DNA of 64,000 nucleotides from Acidimicrobiales bacterium (GTDB taxonomy: Bacteria > Actinomycetota > Acidimicrobiia > Acidimicrobiales > WLNW01). The position numbers were made by a program, and so were the translations under genes. The stretch lies in the NCBI GenBank assembly GCA_039934635.1, contig JBDTLT010000011.1:5118-69117 (forward strand), in the 5' to 3' direction. Within the stretch, counting starts at the first letter, position 1. Each line of letters begins with the position of its first letter. Below the pieces are notes generated by a model, which was not told the DNA's origin, searched no databases, and saw only the letters and a list, made by a program, of their open reading frames with translations. Positions 4,080-11,843 of the stretch are shown here, in pieces.

Positions 4080-4106
4080 ATTTGTTACTATGGCCGTAGT
4101 GGAAAT
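4080..4106. promoter_or_regulatory. Palindromic operator-like motif upstream of sufB
   Basis: ATTTGTTACTAT-GGCC-GTAGTGGAAAT; related motifs lie at 5969-5994 and 11818-11843. Confidence 0.6.
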
Positions 4107-4143: not shown

Positions 4144-5541
4144 ATGGCTGACATTGGCGTTGATCTGAGCCGCTACGCCCTCGGGTGGCACGACGAAGTT
4201 GTTTCCGTCTTCGAGCCCAAGCGTGGCTTGAACGCCGACATCGTCAAAGAGATCTCCGGCATCAAGGGCGAGCCCCAGTGGATGCTCGACTTCCGGTTGA
4301 AGTCACTGCGCCAATTCGAAAAGCGGCCCATGCCCAATTGGGGCGGCGATCTCTCCGAGATCTACTTCGACAACATCTTCTATTACATCAAGCCGACCGA
4401 CCATCAGGTCGACGCGTGGGATGCCTTGCCCGAGTCGGTGAAAAAGACCTACGAAAAGCTCGGTATTCCCGAGGCCGAGCGCAAGTACCTCGCGGGGGTC
4501 ACCGCGCAGTACGAAAGCGAAGTCGTCTTCCATCGCAATCGTGAAGATCTCGCCGGTCTCGGTGTGATCTTCTGCGACATGGACACCGCGCTGCGCGAGT
4601 ACCCCGATGTCGTCAAGAAGCACATGGGCAAGATCATCCCGTCGAACGACAACAAGTTCTCTGCGCTCAACTCCGCCGCGTGGAGCGGTGGCTCGTTCAT
4701 CTACGTCCCACCGGGCGTCAAGGTGCCGATGCCGTTGCAGGCCTACTTCCGTATCAACTCGGAGAACATGGGCCAGTTCGAGCGCACGTTGATCATCGCC
4801 GACGAGGGCTCCGAAGTGCATTACATCGAGGGTTGCTCGGCACCGGTCTACACGACCGATTCATTGCATTCGGCGGTCGTCGAGATCTTCGTCGGCAAGT
4901 CGGCTCGAGTGACCTACACGACCATCCAAAACTGGTCCAACAACGTCTTCAACTTGGTCACCAAGCGCGCCCGGGTCGAGGCCGAGGGCCACATGGAGTG
5001 GATCGACGGCAACATCGGTTCGCGTCTCACGATGAAGTACCCCGGTGTCGTCATGGTCGGCCCCAAGGCATCCGGTGAGGTGCTGTCGGTCGCCTATGCG
5101 GGGCAGGGCCAACATCAAGATGCCGGCGCCAAGATGGTGCACGCCGCGCCCGAGACGACCTCCAAAATCGTGTCCAAGTCGATCTCCAAGGACGGCGGGC
5201 GCACCAGCTATCGCGGTCTGGTGCGGGTCGAAGGCGACGCCTACGGCTGCAAGAGTCATGTGCAGTGCGACGCGCTCATTCTCGATGACCATTCCATCTC
5301 CGACACGTTCCCCTACATGGAGATCGGCGCCAAAGATGCGGTCATCGGCCACGAGGCGACGGTGTCCAAGGTCGCGGACGATCAACTCTTCTACTTGATG
5401 AGCCGCGGGCTCTCGCACGAACAAGCCATGGGCATGATCGTCAACGGCTTCATCGAGCCGGTGACGCGCACGCTGCCGATGGAGTACGCGGTCGAGTGGT
5501 CACGCCTCATCGAACTACAGATGGAAGGCAGCGTCGGCTGA
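4144..5541 (+). CDS. sufB: Fe-S cluster assembly protein SufB
   Basis: [62 protein letters not shown]...LQMEGSVG. Confidence 0.98.
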
Positions 5542-5607
5542 GCCTGCGAAGCAGCGTGCCATGCCCCCCGCGTGCCGTGCACGCGGCGGGTTTGGCAAGA
5601 TGGGGTG

Positions 5608-5967
5608 ATGCCCATGCGGGAAGAGTGCAAGTTCTTCGAGAGTCGGACCTATAAGAACGGTGAGACCGTCCGCAAGTGCGACCTCGACCTTGCCCCCGAG
5701 GCGCCGTGGCGTTGTCCGGAGAACTGCGCGGCGTTCACGCCGCGGATGGCCGACGTCAATTGGGCCCACGGCACGCTCGTGACGCCGCCGACGCCCGCCG
5801 AGCCGAAGAGCCTCGAAGAAGATCCCGAATCGGTGGCCCGTCTGCTCGACGAAGCCGAGGACATCCTCAACGAAGCCGGACCGCGCATCGTCGACGAGGT
5901 CAATCGCCAGCAGGGTCGAGACCCGGCTCGGCGAAAGTGGTGGCCGTTCGGTCGCGCCGGGCGCTGA
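5608..5967 (+). CDS. Uncharacterised protein with a C-x16-C-x11-C-x3-C motif, between sufB and sufD
   Basis: ORF fills the sufB-sufD gap with typical codon usage; four Cys in the N-terminal 40 aa, acidic helical middle, basic/aromatic tail (RRKWWPFGR). Confidence 0.8.
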   Translation: MPMREECKFFESRTYKNGETVRKCDLDLAPEAPWRCPENCAAFTPRMADVNWAHGTLVTPPTPAEPKSLEEDPESVARLLDEAEDILNEAGPRIVDEVNRQQGRDPARRKWWPFGRAGR

Positions 5968-5968
5968 T

Positions 5969-5994
5969 ATTTCCCCTACGCGGATAGGATTATT
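5969..5994. promoter_or_regulatory. Degenerate copy of the suf operator-like palindrome directly before sufD
   Basis: ATTTCCCCTAC-GCGG-ATAGGATTATT, ending 3 nt before the sufD GTG. Confidence 0.45.
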
Positions 5995-5997
5995 TCC

Positions 5998-7266
5998 GTG
6001 GTTTCGGTCTTTGCCCCCGATGTAGCGCGCTCGCTCGACGGGCCCCAATGGCTTCGCGAATTTCGCCGTGGCGCGGCCGAGCGGGTTGCAGCGGGTTCCT
6101 TGCCCACCGCCGACGAAGAGGTGTGGCGCTACACCCGCATCGGTGATCTCGCCATCGACCGCTTTCACCTGAGCGACGGCGTCAGCGGTGATGCCCGCAC
6201 CGTTGCCCAGGTGCAGACCGTGCTCGGCGCCTACAGCGACACCGCCGCGGTAGTCGTCGTGCACAACGGACGGCTCGCGCATGTCTCGCAATCGGTCGCT
6301 CGCGGGCTCTACGTAGGGCCGCTGACCGGCTATCGCGGTGGCGAAACGCTGCTCGGCTCGGCGTCGCCCGCCGCCACCGATCTCTTCGCGGAGATGAACA
6401 ACGCATTCGCCGCAGAGCCTCTCGCAGTGGTCGTGGACGCGAACGCCGAGATCGACGCGCCGATTGTGGTCGTGCACTGGAACGACGGCGCCGACGCTGC
6501 GGTGTTTCCCCGTCTCGTCGTGCGGGCGGGCGCCAACAGTCACGCGCTGCTCGTCGAGCACGCGTTGTCGTCGGGCGACACGTTGATGCTGGCTCCCGTG
6601 GTCGAGATGGTGATCGAGCGCGACGCTCGCTTCGGCTATCTCAACGTGCAGCAGTTGGGTGCGAGCACCTGGCAACTGGCATCGCATTCTTCGACCGTCG
6701 ACACCGGTGCCACATTGACCGCGTCAGCCGCGGTTTTCGGTGGCGACTCGGCGCGTCAACGCACCGACTGCCGGCTCATCGGGCGGGGCGCCACCGGCGT
6801 GCTGCAAGCCTTGTATTTCGGCAGCGGTGACCAATTGCTCGACTTCCGCACCTTTCAAGATCACGCGGCGCGCGACACCACGAGCAATCTGTTGTTCAAA
6901 GGCGTCATCGACGATCGGGCCCGCTCGGTCTACACCGGGCTCATCCATGTGCGACCCGATGCCCGGGGGACCAACGCGTTCCAGACGAACCGCAACATCA
7001 AACTCTCTGACGAAGCATGGGCCGAGTCCGTGCCCAACCTCCAGATCGAGAACAACGACGTCAAGTGCAGCCACGCGTCGACCGTCGGCCCCGTCGACGA
7101 AGACCAACGCTTCTATCTGGAGAGTCGCGGTTTGCATCCCTCGCGAGCCGAGCGTTTCATCGTCGCCGGCTTCTTCGACGAGGTGCTCCACGCCCTGCCG
7201 GTCGCCGCCGCTCGTCCGATCGTCGCCGCGGCAATCACCGCCAAACTTGGCGAGGAGTCGAAGTGA
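5998..7266 (+). CDS. sufD: Fe-S cluster assembly protein SufD
   Basis: PTADEEVWRYT, LLFKGVI, AFQTNRNIKLS, SVPNLQIENNDVKCSHASTVG, FYLESRG. Confidence 0.95.
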   Translation: MVSVFAPDVARSLDGPQWLREFRRGAAERVAAGSLPTADEEVWRYTRIGDLAIDRFHLSDGVSGDARTVAQVQTVLGAYSDTAAVVVVHNGRLAHVSQSVARGLYVGPLTGYRGGETLLGSASPAATDLFAEMNNAFAAEPLAVVVDANAEIDAPIVVVHWNDGADAAVFPRLVVRAGANSHALLVEHALSSGDTLMLAPVVEMVIERDARFGYLNVQQLGASTWQLASHSSTVDTGATLTASAAVFGGDSARQRTDCRLIGRGATGVLQALYFGSGDQLLDFRTFQDHAARDTTSNLLFKGVIDDRARSVYTGLIHVRPDARGTNAFQTNRNIKLSDEAWAESVPNLQIENNDVKCSHASTVGPVDEDQRFYLESRGLHPSRAERFIVAGFFDEVLHALPVAAARPIVAAAITAKLGEESK

Positions 7267-7589
7267 AGCAGTTCTTATTGTGCGCCGTTGACGATCTCGC
7301 GCCCGCGACGGCGCGGCGCTTCGACGTAGACGCACACCGCATCGCGCTGGTGCGCATCGACGACGACTTCTACGCCATCGGCGACACGTGTTCGCACGCG
7401 GACTACTCGCTCTCCGAAGGCGAGGTCAACCTCGAAGAACGCACGCTCGAATGCTGGAAGCACGGCAGCCAGTTCAGCGTCGAAGACGGACATCCGGTGT
7501 CGCTACCCGCCACGCGGCCGGTGCCGGTCTACAAAGTCGTCGTCGAAGACGGCTCGGTCTACGTGTCGATCGAGGCCGGCGATGAGTGA
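7263..7589 (+). CDS. Rieske-type ferredoxin (non-heme iron oxygenase ferredoxin subunit)
   Basis: GTG start overlapping the sufD stop; CSH..(x17)..CWKHGSQF Rieske motif. Usual member of actinobacterial suf operons. Confidence 0.92.
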   Translation: MKQFLLCAVDDLAPATARRFDVDAHRIALVRIDDDFYAIGDTCSHADYSLSEGEVNLEERTLECWKHGSQFSVEDGHPVSLPATRPVPVYKVVVEDGSVYVSIEAGDE

Positions 7590-8370
7590 GCTCGTGATCA
7601 GGGGCCTGTACGCGTCGGTGCGGGGCGCGCCCATTCTGCGCGGCGTCGATCTGGTCGTGCGCAGCGGCGAAGTGCACGCGGTGATGGGCCCCAATGGGTC
7701 GGGCAAATCGACGTTGGCGCATGTGCTGATGGGTAAGCCCGGCTACGAGGTCACCGAGGGTTCGATCACGCTCGATGGTGTCGACCTCGTGGGCCTTGCG
7801 CCGTGGCAGCGGGCCCGGGCGGGGCTGTTCCTCGGCCTGCAGTATCCCGTCGAGGTACCCGGCGTGCACGTGGGCGAGGTTCTGGTCGAGGCCCTCGCGG
7901 CGGGCGGGCTTTCGCACGAGGCCGCCGACGAACGCATCGCGTCGGAGGCACCCCGCCTCGGACTCGACGACATGTTCTTCACGCGTGCGCTCAACGTCGA
8001 TCTCTCGGGCGGCGAGAAGAAGCGCGTCGAGACCTTTCAGCTCGCGGTGCTGCGGCCCAAGATCGCGGTGCTCGACGAGCTCGATTCGGGCCTCGATATC
8101 GACGCGTTGCGCCTCGTCAGCCGCCGTGTCGAAGACGCGACCAAAGAGTTCGATCTCGGCGTGCTCGCCATCACGCACTACCAGCGCCTGCTCGAAGTAC
8201 TGCACGCTGATCACGTGCACATCTTCGCCAACGGTCGCATCAAGGCCAGCGGCGGCCCCGAGCTGGCGTCCGAGCTCGAACGCACCGGCTATGCCGCGTG
8301 GGCCGACGCCGAGGCCGCGACCGTCGTCGCCGATCCGTTCGCGGATCCCTTCGCGGATCCCTTCGCCTGA
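7582..8370 (+). CDS. sufC: Fe-S cluster assembly ATPase SufC (copy 1), C-terminal (ADPF)3 tail
   Basis: Walker A GPNGSGKST, QYPVEVPG, LSGGEKKR signature, Walker B DELDSGLDID, ITHYQR. Confidence 0.95.
   Translation: MSELVIRGLYASVRGAPILRGVDLVVRSGEVHAVMGPNGSGKSTLAHVLMGKPGYEVTEGSITLDGVDLVGLAPWQRARAGLFLGLQYPVEVPGVHVGEVLVEALAAGGLSHEAADERIASEAPRLGLDDMFFTRALNVDLSGGEKKRVETFQLAVLRPKIAVLDELDSGLDIDALRLVSRRVEDATKEFDLGVLAITHYQRLLEVLHADHVHIFANGRIKASGGPELASELERTGYAAWADAEAATVVADPFADPFADPFA
8329..8364 (+). repeat. 12-nt tandem repeat x3 encoding (ADPF)3 at the SufC1 C-terminus
   Basis: gccgatccgttc gcggatcccttc gcggatcccttc, followed by gcc tga. Confidence 0.9.
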
Positions 8371-8433
8371 TTCGAACGCGTCGCCGCGGCTCGCCGTCTG
8401 GACGTACCGCGAACGTGTCGTAGGCTCGAAACC

Positions 8434-8733
8434 ATGCCGGTAGATCGCCGTCCCCTGTCCTCCGCCGAGGTCGCCCACCTCGTCGCGCCACTCGACGGAT
8501 GGGAGCTCGACGGCGACACGTTGCGGCGTCAGCTGGTCTTCGACTCGTTCGTGCAGGCCTTCGGCTTCATGGCCCAGGTGGCCCTCATCGCCGAGCGCCT
8601 CGACCATCACCCGAACTGGTCCAACGTGTACAACCGCGTCGACATCGCCGTCACGACGCACGATGCGGGCGGCTTGACCGCGCTCGACTTCGAGTTCGTG
8701 CGCCGGGTCGACGCGGTCTTGTCGCGAGCCTGA
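8434..8733 (+). CDS. phhB: Pterin-4-alpha-carbinolamine dehydratase
   Basis: F..AFGFM..VALIAERLDHHPNWSNVYNRV.I..TTHDAGGLT.LDF. Confidence 0.92.
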   Translation: MPVDRRPLSSAEVAHLVAPLDGWELDGDTLRRQLVFDSFVQAFGFMAQVALIAERLDHHPNWSNVYNRVDIAVTTHDAGGLTALDFEFVRRVDAVLSRA

Positions 8734-8734
8734 C

Positions 8735-9256
8735 ATGCGCCACGAAATCGAAGGCAGCATCGTCCGTCTGCGCGCGATGGAACTCGCCGATGTCCAGTGG
8801 TACGACAACTTGCCGATCACGAGTGAGTACGACGACTTTGGCCAGCAGCCGCCGTACAACTCAGTCGATCGCTGGCGCGCCGACAAGCTCGTCACCGCCG
8901 ACAACGGGTTGCTACTGGTCGAACAGATCGCGTCGCGCGAGCGACTGGGTTCTGTCGGGTGGCGCACCGTCACGTGGGGGCCGTCGTGGCTGTCCCGTTG
9001 TATAGAGATCGGCATCTCGCTCATTCCGAGTGCGCGGGGCCGCGGCCTCGGTACCGAGGCGCAGCGGTTACTCGCTCGATTTCTCTTCGCCGAGACCAAT
9101 GTGCAACGAATCCAGGCGGTCACCGACGTGACCAACCTTTCCGAGCAGCGTGCGCTCGAAAAAGCGGGCTTCATCGCCGAAGGAGTGCTGCGCAGCGCGC
9201 AACACCGGCGCGGCGACTATCACGACTTGGTGATCTACGCAGTAGTACGCGAATAG
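8735..9256 (+). CDS. GNAT N-acetyltransferase, RimJ/RimL family
   Basis: EIGISL..SARGRGLGTEA, RIQAVTDVTN..EQRALEKAGF..EGVLR. Confidence 0.88.
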   Translation: MRHEIEGSIVRLRAMELADVQWYDNLPITSEYDDFGQQPPYNSVDRWRADKLVTADNGLLLVEQIASRERLGSVGWRTVTWGPSWLSRCIEIGISLIPSARGRGLGTEAQRLLARFLFAETNVQRIQAVTDVTNLSEQRALEKAGFIAEGVLRSAQHRRGDYHDLVIYAVVRE

Positions 9257-9280
9257 TGCGTGCTAGTGGGGTGGTCTAAC

Positions 9281-9321
9281 CGCGGCGGCAGCCGCCCAGC
9301 GTTGCGGCGCCGCCGCACCAG
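9281..9321. repeat. Degenerate copy of the REP-like double-hairpin repeat (between convergent GNAT and sufU)
   Basis: cgcggcggcagccgcccagcgttgcggcgccgccgcaccag resembles 62357-62397 and keeps both GCGGC..GCCGC stems. Confidence 0.65.
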
Positions 9322-9332
9322 AACGACCGCCG

Positions 9333-9803
9333 CTAGGCGGTCGCGTCGTCGAGGCCGATGGCGAGGGTGTTCCAGGCCAACGTCGCACACTTGATGCGCG
9401 ATGCGAACTTGACCACGCCGCGGAGCGCTTCGAGGTCACCGAGCTTGATCTCGGCACCGTTGTCGTCGGTCTCGCTCGTCGTGCCGTCGAGCTCGTTTTC
9501 GTGGATCGACATCATCCCTTTGAAGGCACGCGTGGTCGAGCGCGCCTCGTTGACGCTCTTGCCCTTGACCGCGACGCTCATCATCGAGGCCGACGCCTTG
9601 CTGATCGAGCAGCCCTGACCGGTGATGCGCACGTCTCTGACACGGCCGTCGGCGACGTCGACGTAGACCGCCACCTCGTCACCGCACAGCGGGTTGAACC
9701 CCTCCGCACGATGCGCGGGCGGACACTCGAGGGTGCCGTTGTTACGGGGATTGCGGTAGTGATCGAGGATGATCTCGCGGTAGAGATCTTCGAGCCCAGG
9801 CAT
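9333..9803 (-). CDS. sufU: SufU (SUF system NifU-like scaffold / Zn sulfurtransferase)
   Basis: LYREIILDHYRNPRN, NPLCGDE, GQGCSISKASAS, F.SRIKCATLAW; ATG at 9803. Confidence 0.96.
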   Translation of the reverse strand: MPGLEDLYREIILDHYRNPRNNGTLECPPAHRAEGFNPLCGDEVAVYVDVADGRVRDVRITGQGCSISKASASMMSVAVKGKSVNEARSTTRAFKGMMSIHENELDGTTSETDDNGAEIKLGDLEALRGVVKFASRIKCATLAWNTLAIGLDDATA

Positions 9804-9819
9804 TTGTGACCTCGCGACG

Positions 9820-11049
9820 TCAGATGGCAAAGAATTGGCCGGCGGCCTCGAGCGCATCGGCGAGCCGATCGACATCGGACTCGTCGTTGTACACGTAGAA
9901 CGAAGCGCGGGCGGTTGCGGTGATACCGAGCTTGCGCATGAGTGGCTTTGCGCAGTGATGGCCCGCACGTACACAGACACCGTATTGATCGAGCACTTGG
10001 CTGATGTCGTGCGCGTGGATGTCTTTGTAGGTGAAGGAGAACACGGCACCGCGCTGCGCCGGCTCGGACGGGCCGTAGATGTGCAAGTCGTCGCCGAAGC
10101 GTTCGGTCAGTGTGCGCATGGTGTAAGCGGCGAGGGTGACTTCGTGCTCGCGCACCGCGTCCATGCCGAGGCCGCGGAGGTAGTCGACCGCCGCGCCCAG
10201 CCCGATGATCTCCGCGATGGGGGGAGTGCCCGCTTCGAATTTCCACGGCACGTCGTTGGTGGTGAATCCGTCGAAGCGCACGTCTCGGATCATTTCGCCG
10301 CCGCCCAAGAACGGCGGCATGGCGTCGAGGATCTCTTGGCGACCCCAGAGCACGCCGATGCCCGTCGGGCCGCACATCTTGTGTCCGCTGAACGCCAACA
10401 GGTCGGCGCCGAGTGCGTGCACATCGGTGGCGAGGTGGGGCACGTACTGGCAGGCGTCGATGCACACGGTGGCACCCGCGGCGTGCGCGGCGTCGGCGAT
10501 GCGGCGCATCGGAGTGAGCGTGCCGAGGACGTTGGACATCGCAGTGATCGACACGAGCTTGGCGCCGTCGAGGTAGCGATCGAGCTCGTCGACGCACAAC
10601 ATGCCGTCGTCCCGAATCGGTAGCCACCGCAGCTCGATGCCGCGCTCGGCGGCGAGCATGTGCCACGGCACGATGTTGGCGTGGTGCTCCATCTCGGTGA
10701 GCACGACGGCGTCGCCCTCTTTGAGGTTGGCCCGGCCCCAGGAATGCGCCACGAGGTTGAGCGACTCGGTGGCGTTCTTGGTGAAGACGACCTCGTTGTA
10801 GTCGCCACCGATGAACCCGGCGACCGCGCGGCGCGCGCCTTCCATCTGGTTGGTGGCTTCTTCGGCGATGCGATACACACCGCGGTGCACGTTGGCGTTG
10901 ATCGTCTCGTAGTAGGTCGTCATCGCGTCGATCACGACCCGCGGCTTTTGCGACGTCGCGGCGGAGTCGACGTAGACGATGGGGTGCCCGTCGACCTTTT
11001 GGTCGAGCAGAGGGAAGTCCTTCTTGATGCGCTCAGTGTCGAGTGCCAT
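9820..11049 (-). CDS. sufS: Cysteine desulfurase SufS
   Basis: YVDSAATSQKP, ANVHRGVY, MEHHANIVPW, FSGHKMCGPTGIG (PLP Lys), VRAGHHCA (catalytic Cys). ATG at 11049 overlaps the sufC2 stop. Confidence 0.97.
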   Translation of the reverse strand: MALDTERIKKDFPLLDQKVDGHPIVYVDSAATSQKPRVVIDAMTTYYETINANVHRGVYRIAEEATNQMEGARRAVAGFIGGDYNEVVFTKNATESLNLVAHSWGRANLKEGDAVVLTEMEHHANIVPWHMLAAERGIELRWLPIRDDGMLCVDELDRYLDGAKLVSITAMSNVLGTLTPMRRIADAAHAAGATVCIDACQYVPHLATDVHALGADLLAFSGHKMCGPTGIGVLWGRQEILDAMPPFLGGGEMIRDVRFDGFTTNDVPWKFEAGTPPIAEIIGLGAAVDYLRGLGMDAVREHEVTLAAYTMRTLTERFGDDLHIYGPSEPAQRGAVFSFTYKDIHAHDISQVLDQYGVCVRAGHHCAKPLMRKLGITATARASFYVYNDESDVDRLADALEAAGQFFAI

Positions 11050-11789
11050 CACCGCCAGCTTTCGTAGCCGTCTCTCTCGAGCCGCTCTACGAGCTCGAGG
11101 CCGCCGGTAGCGACGATGCGGCCGTCGATCATGATGTGAACGACATCGGGTACCAGCTCTTCGAGCAAGCGCTGATAGTGCGTGATCGCGAGCACGCCCA
11201 TCGAGGGGCGGTCGCGGTGAACTTCGTTGACGCCTTGGGCGACGATGCGCAGCGCGTCGATATCGAGACCCGAGTCGGTCTCGTCGAGGATCGCCAACTC
11301 GGGCTCGAGGATGGCGAGTTGCAGGACCTCGTTGCGTTTCTTCTCGCCACCGGAGAAGCCCTCGTTGAGGTAGCGATCGGCGAAGGACGAATCCATGCCG
11401 AGGCGTTGCATCCACTCCATGATCGACAGCCGCAACTCGAGCACCGAGAGATCGAGGCCCTTGCGGGCGGACAGCGCCTGGCGCAAGAAGTTGATGACCG
11501 AGACGCCGGCGATCTCTTGCGGGTACTGGAAAGCGAGGAACATGCCGGATTTGCCACGCACGTCGGCCGGCCAACTGGAGATGTCGTCGCCCTTGAAGAG
11601 GATCGAGCCTTCGGTCATCGCGTACTCGGGGTTGCCGAGTAGCACATTGGCCAGCGTCGACTTGCCCGAGCCGTTGGGACCCAAAAGCGCGTGGATCTCG
11701 CCGGGGGCGATCGTCAGGTCGACGCCCCGCAGGATCGGGGTGGAACCAGCGCCGGCATGCAGGTTGCGCACCTCGAAGAGCGGGGTCAT
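11049..11789 (-). CDS. sufC: Fe-S cluster assembly ATPase SufC (copy 2)
   Basis: GPNGSGKST, FLAFQYPQEI, RYLNEGFSGGEKKRNE, LDETDSGLDIDAL, ITHYQRLL. Start MTPLF at 11789 with TAGACT 7 nt upstream (leaderless-type). Confidence 0.96.
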   Translation of the reverse strand: MTPLFEVRNLHAGAGSTPILRGVDLTIAPGEIHALLGPNGSGKSTLANVLLGNPEYAMTEGSILFKGDDISSWPADVRGKSGMFLAFQYPQEIAGVSVINFLRQALSARKGLDLSVLELRLSIMEWMQRLGMDSSFADRYLNEGFSGGEKKRNEVLQLAILEPELAILDETDSGLDIDALRIVAQGVNEVHRDRPSMGVLAITHYQRLLEELVPDVVHIMIDGRIVATGGLELVERLERDGYESWR

Positions 11790-11817: not shown

Positions 11818-11843
11818 ATTTGCACTATGCCGGTAGTGGTAAT
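11818..11843. promoter_or_regulatory. Best copy of the suf operator-like palindrome, over the predicted -35 of sufC2-sufS-sufU
   Basis: ATTTGCACTAT-GCCG-GTAGTGGTAAT; the minus-strand -10 TAGACT is at 11797-11802. Confidence 0.65.

Follow-up and report, generated by a model that had tools for sequence, protein, structure and literature searches.

Two ancient, asymmetrically diverged SufC paralogs beside one SufB and one SufD in the split SUF locus of Acidimicrobiia

Must the two ATPases of a SUF iron-sulphur scaffold be copies of one protein? The question is raised by a 64 kb window (the whole stretch of DNA analysed here, in which all positions below are counted) from an Acidimicrobiales metagenome-assembled genome, G000 (6.56 Mb in 496 contigs, 96.5% complete), where two sufC genes lie in facing units while sufB and sufD are each present once. 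To our knowledge, the SufC subunits derive from one gene in E. coli and in all characterised SUF systems, and because the systems studied have only this one gene, the SufC on SufB cannot be mutated apart from the SufC on SufD. The E. coli SufBC2D complex is built on a pseudo-symmetric heterodimer of SufB and SufD, each holding one SufC via its C-terminal helices, and the two SufCs dimerise transiently in a manner linked to ATP (PMC6006206). In the class Acidimicrobiia a pair of SufC paralogs serves the single SufB and single SufD; the pair is ancient, class-wide, under purifying selection and asymmetrically diverged, which suggests a specialised pair in place of the identical motor pair.

Two intact SufC paralogs retained across Acidimicrobiia

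The suf genes of the window are as follows.

4144-5541, + strand, sufB (TIGR01980, 708 bits)
5998-7266, + strand, sufD (TIGR01981, 229.5 bits)
7263-7589, + strand, Rieske [2Fe-2S] ferredoxin gene (PF00355, 68 bits), overlapping the sufD stop and the sufC1 start
7582-8370, + strand, sufC1, 262 aa (TIGR01978, 261 bits)
9333-9779, - strand, sufU (TIGR01994, 135 bits)
9820-11049, - strand, sufS (TIGR01979, 552 bits)
11049-11789, - strand, sufC2, 246 aa (TIGR01978, 303 bits)

The open reading frame list and family scans thus confirm the gene content, order and strands reported in an earlier note on this DNA. On the + strand lie sufB, a small gene for a four-cysteine protein, sufD, the Rieske gene and sufC1, facing sufC2-sufS-sufU on the - strand. 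Only the sufS boundary needs a small correction, its start being most likely the ATG at 11049, which overlaps the sufC2 stop as TGATG. The Rieske stop is likewise overlapped, by 8 nt, by the sufC1 ATG, and by these two overlaps both sufC genes are coupled in translation to the genes next to them. Whole-genome tblastn of G000 returned sufB, sufD, sufS and sufU once each, the sole SufB match and the sole SufD copy being those of the window, and 14 relatives checked have one sufB apiece. The single sufB and single sufD rule out a duplication of whole SUF or SMS systems here.

SufC proteins were assigned with the TIGR01978 equivalog model (curated cut-off 212.8 bits), and SufC1 and SufC2 (C1 and C2 below) are the only two matches in G000 above that cut-off. 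The earlier note had described both copies as clearly divergent from each other yet complete in their ATP-binding cassette (ABC) motifs, and both observations hold. The two proteins are 53% identical over 239 residues, while Walker A (GPNGSGKST), the Q-loop (QYP), the signature (SGGEKKR), Walker B with the catalytic Glu (LDExDSGLD), the D-loop and the H-loop (ITHY) are all found in both proteins of the window, and the motifs are conserved across 40 C1 and 41 C2 orthologs. A degenerate ATP site of the kind found in many heterodimeric ABC proteins is ruled out, as the motifs are consensus in both paralogs. The AlphaFold2 (AF2) model of C1 has a predicted local distance difference test score (pLDDT) of 86; its best Foldseek matches are the SufC structures 2D2F, 5AWF, 2ZU0 and 2D3W (template modelling (TM) scores 0.77-0.89), and the folded part superposes on E. 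coli SufC from 5AWF with a TM score of 0.83-0.89 and a root-mean-square deviation of 2.1 Å. C2 matches Thermus thermophilus SufC (PDB 2D2E) with a phmmer E-value of 2.5e-82.

Whole-genome searches with the same SufC model show how far the pair extends. Within the window's own order (41 genomes from 35 families), exactly two matches exceed the cut-off in 35 genomes, and in one more a single match does so, next to a fragment; the pairs consist of one high-scoring and one lower-scoring match, mostly on the same contig and on opposite strands. The class sample of 121 genomes gave two sufC genes in 109, one in 11 and three in one, and both copies are kept even in genomes of about 1 Mb, of which it includes many. 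Elsewhere in the phylum, 140 genomes of other classes gave one match in 118, none in 21 and two in one; both copies of this last genome are of the ordinary kind, and 118 of the 119 SufC-bearing genomes outside the class therefore have one. The two-copy genome from another class (G257) carries an independent pair in the order sufC-sufB-sufD-Rieske-sufC-sufS-sufU, and only a single copy is present in its sister genomes within the family. Named relatives with a C1 ortholog fall in Acidimicrobiia, Acidimicrobiales, Acidimicrobiaceae and Ilumatobacteraceae, which bears out the taxon that the earlier note had guessed.

Seven in-class genomes with a single copy were inspected, three of them from the 11 single-copy genomes of the class sample. 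In four of the seven the locus is cut by contig ends. In the other three (G104, G134 and G068) both native SufCs are gone together and a foreign-looking sufB-sufC-sufD operon is found instead, whose SufB is 42-43% identical to that of the window; in these genomes the whole SUF system looks to have been replaced through horizontal transfer. The ancient co-retention of both copies across Acidimicrobiia that the earlier note had raised as a question is therefore borne out by 109 of 121 genomes. Lineage restriction or decay of one copy, the outcome it had set against its own proposal, is ruled out by the class-wide pair, the intact genes and low ratios of nonsynonymous to synonymous substitution (dN/dS, 0.05-0.09): measured with a relative of the same genus, the ratio is 0.089 for sufC1, 0.054 for sufC2 and between 0.03 and 0.15 for the other suf genes.

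A maximum likelihood tree of 105 SufC sequences (LG+C20+F+G4) resolves a C1 clade (support 100/97) and a C2 clade (100/99), each with the same three major subclades, as expected of genes co-inherited since before the class diversified. The native C1 and C2 have thus been inherited vertically, under purifying selection, since before the class split.

The window proteins were mapped onto 40 in-class loci and 14 loci of named Acidimicrobiia, and nearly all have sufD-Rieske-sufC1 set opposite sufU-sufS-sufC2: the sufD-Rieske-sufC1 order is found in 51 of the 52 loci holding both sufD and sufC1, and the convergent orientation in all 48 loci with both copies. In most lineages sufB, which is never duplicated, lies directly upstream of sufD; in several it is hundreds of kilobases off or on another contig. 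Other Actinomycetota have one sufC, in the order sufB-sufD-Rieske-sufC-sufS-sufU or sufC-sufB-sufD-Rieske-sufS-sufU. An ancestral sufB-sufD-Rieske-sufC-sufS-sufU locus thus became, before the class diversified, a convergent pair of [sufB]-sufD-Rieske-sufC1 and sufC2-sufS-sufU. In the simplest origin, sufC would have been duplicated in tandem at the junction and one half then inverted, so that each half would have kept a copy.

One-sided divergence, rate covariation and a shared palindrome

When each paralog is compared to the consensus of outgroup SufCs, divergence proves one-sided: 11 positions kept by C2 and the outgroups are derived or relaxed in C1, as against one in C2. SufC2 is the conservative, ancestral-like copy and SufC1 the derived one. 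One change follows the Q-loop, where the segment NFLRQAL is near-invariant in C2 and the outgroups but variable in C1; it affects the positions of E. coli F98 and Q100, where the outgroups and C2 have Arg. The changed segment of C1 corresponds in the AF2 model to helix 97-107, α3, and in the E. coli SufC2D2 structure the Q-loop, α2, α3 and β6 make up the SufD-binding surface (PMC6006206). Two further changes of C1 lie near the ATPase dimer face, namely the three residues before the signature (NEGFSGG to NVDLSGG) and the residue after the catalytic Glu (DETD to DE[IL]D).

C1 also carries an additional C-terminal tail.

8302-8367, + strand, SufC1 C-terminal tail, residues 241-262, ending ADPFADPFADPFA, predicted to be disordered (pLDDT <50 for 245-262)

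Across the orthologs the tail is 20-40 residues long, and in about 30 of 40 it ends in DPFADPF[A], DPFADPLA or DFFTDTPFD. Acidic-aromatic tails of this type (DPFxDP[FL] or DFFTDTPFD) occur in no C2 and in no outgroup SufC. A genome search for a DPF docking tail shared with other G000 proteins found none, the motif being confined to SufC1.

At 27 positions shared by SufB and SufD of the outgroups, the in-class SufB has changed none and the in-class SufD three. One of these SufD changes turns LFYL of the C-terminal domain into R[FY]YL; it is not uniform in the class and shows no clean covariation with the α3 sequence of C1.

Rate covariation was assessed in 34 genomes with all six proteins by two methods, partial correlations of pairwise distances and, more strictly, branch lengths on one fixed tree taken as residuals against the other proteins. 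By pairwise distances, the known partners SufS and SufU serve as a positive control at 0.55 and C1-C2 reaches 0.37; SufB pairs with C2 (0.36 versus 0.06 for C1) and SufD with C1 (0.31 versus 0.06 for C2). By branch lengths, only three of the 15 pairs pass Bonferroni correction, namely C1-C2 (0.42, p=0.0006), SufB-SufD (0.40, p=0.001) and SufS-SufU (0.37, p=0.003). The coupling of C1 to C2 is therefore robust across both methods and on a par with that of known partner pairs.

The two units also appear to be tied together by regulation. Exactly three sites in the 64 kb window match the palindrome MCTAY-N4-RTAGK, MCTAYNNNNRTAGK, where 0.03 would be expected, and each precedes a suf gene.

4087-4100, palindrome ACTATGGCCGTAGT, 44 bp upstream of sufB, exact match
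5975-5988, palindrome CCTACGCGGATAGG, 10 bp upstream of sufD, exact match
11824-11837, palindrome ACTATGCCGGTAGT, 34 bp upstream of sufC2, exact match

Counted across the class in the 150 bp before each start codon and with at most one mismatch, the palindrome precedes sufC2 in 35 of 49 loci, sufB in 18 of 19 and sufD in 13 of 44, and is found upstream of sufC1, sufS, sufU and the Rieske gene in none of the 47-51 loci available for each. The background is 2.4% in random 150-bp windows, and suf genes outside the class gave 6 of 156. No sufR is adjacent to the suf locus of the window. Judged from its sequence and placement, the palindrome looks like a class-specific operator of a SUF regulator, and a common putative operator before sufB, sufD and sufC2 implies that the units are co-regulated as one regulon.

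Public metatranscriptomes yielded mostly conserved parts from relatives, including contigs that span the Rieske-sufC1 junction, together with one contig of 255 nt that lies inside sufC1 (7859-8113) with 3 differences; these weakly indicate that C1-type genes are expressed.

Models for the SufC pair

From the covariation, the shared putative operator and the co-retention and concerted loss of the two genes we infer a C1:C2 heterodimer on one SufB-SufD scaffold, and consider the chances of this reading to be evenly balanced. C1 and C2 would be parts of one machine, pairing in an ATP-dependent manner on a single SufB-SufD heterodimer, and the SufBC2D architecture would have become a fully asymmetric SufB-C2/C1-SufD complex with both ATP sites competent. 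The assignment of partners is more tentative: that SufC1 serves SufD and SufC2 serves SufB, with the C1 tail as a docking peptide, is possible but doubtful. Linkage bears on it, in that SufC1 may be assigned to SufD because it is always linked to sufD, a weaker inference. In the fullest form of this assignment, which we offer with similar reserve, an obligate SufC heterodimer (SufC2 on SufB, SufC1 on SufD) would recruit a further partner through the DPFxDPF tail, for which the SufS-SufU donor, the Rieske protein and client proteins would be candidates. The symmetry breaking of the SUF scaffold, which led from SmsB2C2 to a SufB-SufD heterodimer with a SufC homodimer, would then have been completed.

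Several observations weigh against these proposals. The maximum likelihood tree places C1 outside the other SufCs, not as the sister of C2, and a putative in-class duplication of sufC, for which synteny argues, is not rejected by the approximately unbiased (AU) test (p=0.27). The branch-based method does not separate the partners (SufB-C2 0.19 versus SufB-C1 0.21; SufD-C1 0.23 versus SufD-C2 0.15), and paralogs of the same fold could covary through shared constraints, not contact. About a quarter of C1 orthologs are without the tail, which is accordingly not essential everywhere. The earlier suggestion of one paralog per partner is supported by the pairwise-distance method, which pairs SufB with C2 and SufD with C1, and is not reproduced by the branch-based one. 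Its alternative, that SufC2 works with the SufS/SufU sulphur donor module, rests mostly on gene order, the only further hint being a modest SufC2-SufS rate covariation of 0.33; the sufC2-sufS-sufU order can be traced to inheritance from the ancestral sufC-sufS-sufU of other Actinomycetota.

The same data can be read in other ways. The four proteins might form two sub-complexes, SufC2 with SufB as a SufB2C2-type scaffold like SMS/SufBC, and SufC1 with SufD and the Rieske protein as an accessory complex resembling SufC2D2, with a role such as the delivery of iron or electrons. This would suit the invariant sufD-Rieske-sufC1 linkage group with sufB elsewhere in several lineages, the existence of SufB2C2 and SufC2D2 in vitro in E. 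coli (PMC6006206), and the pairing of B with C2 and D with C1 by pairwise distances. We nevertheless think it unlikely, since by branch lengths SufB covaries with SufD (0.40, p=0.001) and C1 with C2 (0.42), as if all four act together, the in-class SufB and SufD retain the positions common to both, and one putative operator is common to all units. That operator, standing before the sufC2 unit as well as the sufB and sufD units to which sufC1 belongs, also leaves differential regulation not evident, which speaks against a use of the paralogs as alternative isoforms, in which either SufC would form a homodimeric pair on SufB-SufD according to condition or client protein. Complete catalytic motifs in both copies and the position of each sufC at the head or end of a separate transcription unit would fit such isoforms; the retention of both in streamlined genomes of about 1 Mb, from which condition-specific isoforms are usually lost, and the covariation of C1 and C2 rates would not, and we regard them as a rather improbable explanation.

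A need for dosage would require no specialisation at all: each half of the operon would have retained a sufC so that the 2:1:1 stoichiometry could be reached, and the two equivalent proteins would have diverged neutrally. The ancestral gene order does account for a sufC ending one unit and another heading the other, and the catalytic residues are identical, but the divergence is one-sided (11 versus 1) with derived states conserved across the class, the tail motif is in C1 alone, and among the seven single-copy genomes inspected there is no reversion to a single native copy save the three whole-system replacements. We judge it to have little chance of being correct. The phylogeny invites a different origin, in which SufC1 was acquired horizontally from an unsampled lineage and did not arise by in-class duplication. 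C1 lies outside a 98/90-supported group of C2, other Actinomycetota, Thermus and E. coli, and in a broader tree with 32 added named genomes from at least 12 phyla it again stands apart from their SufCs. That tree of at least 12 phyla contains no donor lineage for C1, and past the orthologs many phyla match equally, at 48-54% identity, so no identifiable donor was found; C1 sits exactly at the ancestral sufC position after sufD-Rieske; and the AU test leaves a C1+C2 clade standing, while a basal placement is what an accelerated post-duplication paralog would show. A horizontal origin of SufC1 is on this evidence very improbable.

Neighbouring genes and known systems

The remaining genes between and beside the suf genes of the window are listed here.

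5608-5967, + strand, four-cysteine gene between sufB and sufD, 119 aa, without a Pfam or NCBIfam match
8434-8733, + strand, PCD/phhB (pterin-4a-carbinolamine dehydratase) gene (PF01329)
8735-9256, + strand, GNAT acetyltransferase gene (PF13302)

The cysteines of the 119-residue protein are N-terminal. Homologs occupy the same position in 22 of the 54 in-class loci, a spread confined to the window's own order as judged on 40 of the 54. The PCD and GNAT genes are probably filler of the convergent spacer, unlikely to have a SUF role, because in relatives sufC1 and sufU stand anywhere between 97 bp and 8691 bp apart. In nine loci, belonging to several families of the order, sufC1 is followed by a PCD/DCoH gene (listed are the window, L039, L040, L043, L044, L058, L107 and L113), and this gene may be co-transcribed with the sufD-Rieske-sufC1 unit. 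Among the relatives, inteins are probably the cause of in-frame inserts of about 1.1-1.2 kb in the sufB of L059, L063 and G052 (C10:152357-154924); inteins are known in mycobacterial SufB. In locus L041 (G009) SufC1 ends in a long Pro/Arg-rich extension and sufS is in several fragments, which are probably frameshift errors of the assembly.

The closest structural counterpart is E. coli SufBC2D (PDB 5AWF; SufC2D2, 2ZU0), which is built from the same four protein families. Here, unlike in E. coli, there are two SufC paralogs, 53% identical and conserved in the class, one of which has an altered α3 and an extra C-terminal tail. The actinobacterial operon sufR-sufB-sufD-(Rieske)-sufC-sufS-sufU-sufT of Mycobacterium and Streptomyces shares the families and, within each half, the gene order, including the Rieske gene between sufD and sufC and the SufS/SufU sulphur donor. 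The locus described here differs in being split at sufC into two convergent units with a sufC in each, in lacking an adjacent sufR, in the class-specific palindrome before its units and in the detachment of sufB in some lineages.

More than one sufC per genome is also found in Methanosarcina acetivorans, which has the duplicated operons sufC1B1/sufC2B2 (PMC10500019), and in Paenibacillus polymyxa, with the duplicated SUF operon sufC2D2B2 (PMC8038749), but in these every sufC is accompanied by a sufB (and sufD) of its own. A full-text literature search returned no publication on two SufCs with one SufB/SufD, nor anything about Acidimicrobiia.

The logic proposed for the SufC pair has parallels among membrane transporters. 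Heterodimeric ABC ATPases include EcfA/EcfA' of the energy-coupling factor (ECF) transporters and OppD/OppF, with homodimeric LptB2 on LptF/LptG as the contrast, and in the ECF and Opp systems two paralogous nucleotide-binding subunits match the two halves of an asymmetric partner one to one. Many of these transporters have one degenerate ATP site. The putative C1:C2 heterodimer would instead belong to a soluble Fe-S scaffold, and both of its ATP sites look competent from their motifs.

Annotation calls both genes plain 'SufC', so pipelines and pathway surveys overlook the distinction. If our reading is true, two distinct, co-evolving SufCs would make the two scaffold positions genetically and biochemically separable, so that the effect of ATP binding and hydrolysis at each half of the scaffold, and the separate roles of the two ATP sites, could be studied singly; the class-wide putative operator and the C1-specific tail provide two further testable handles. 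The Acidimicrobiia would then offer a clean case of a homodimeric ABC motor that became heterodimeric after its partner had turned asymmetric.

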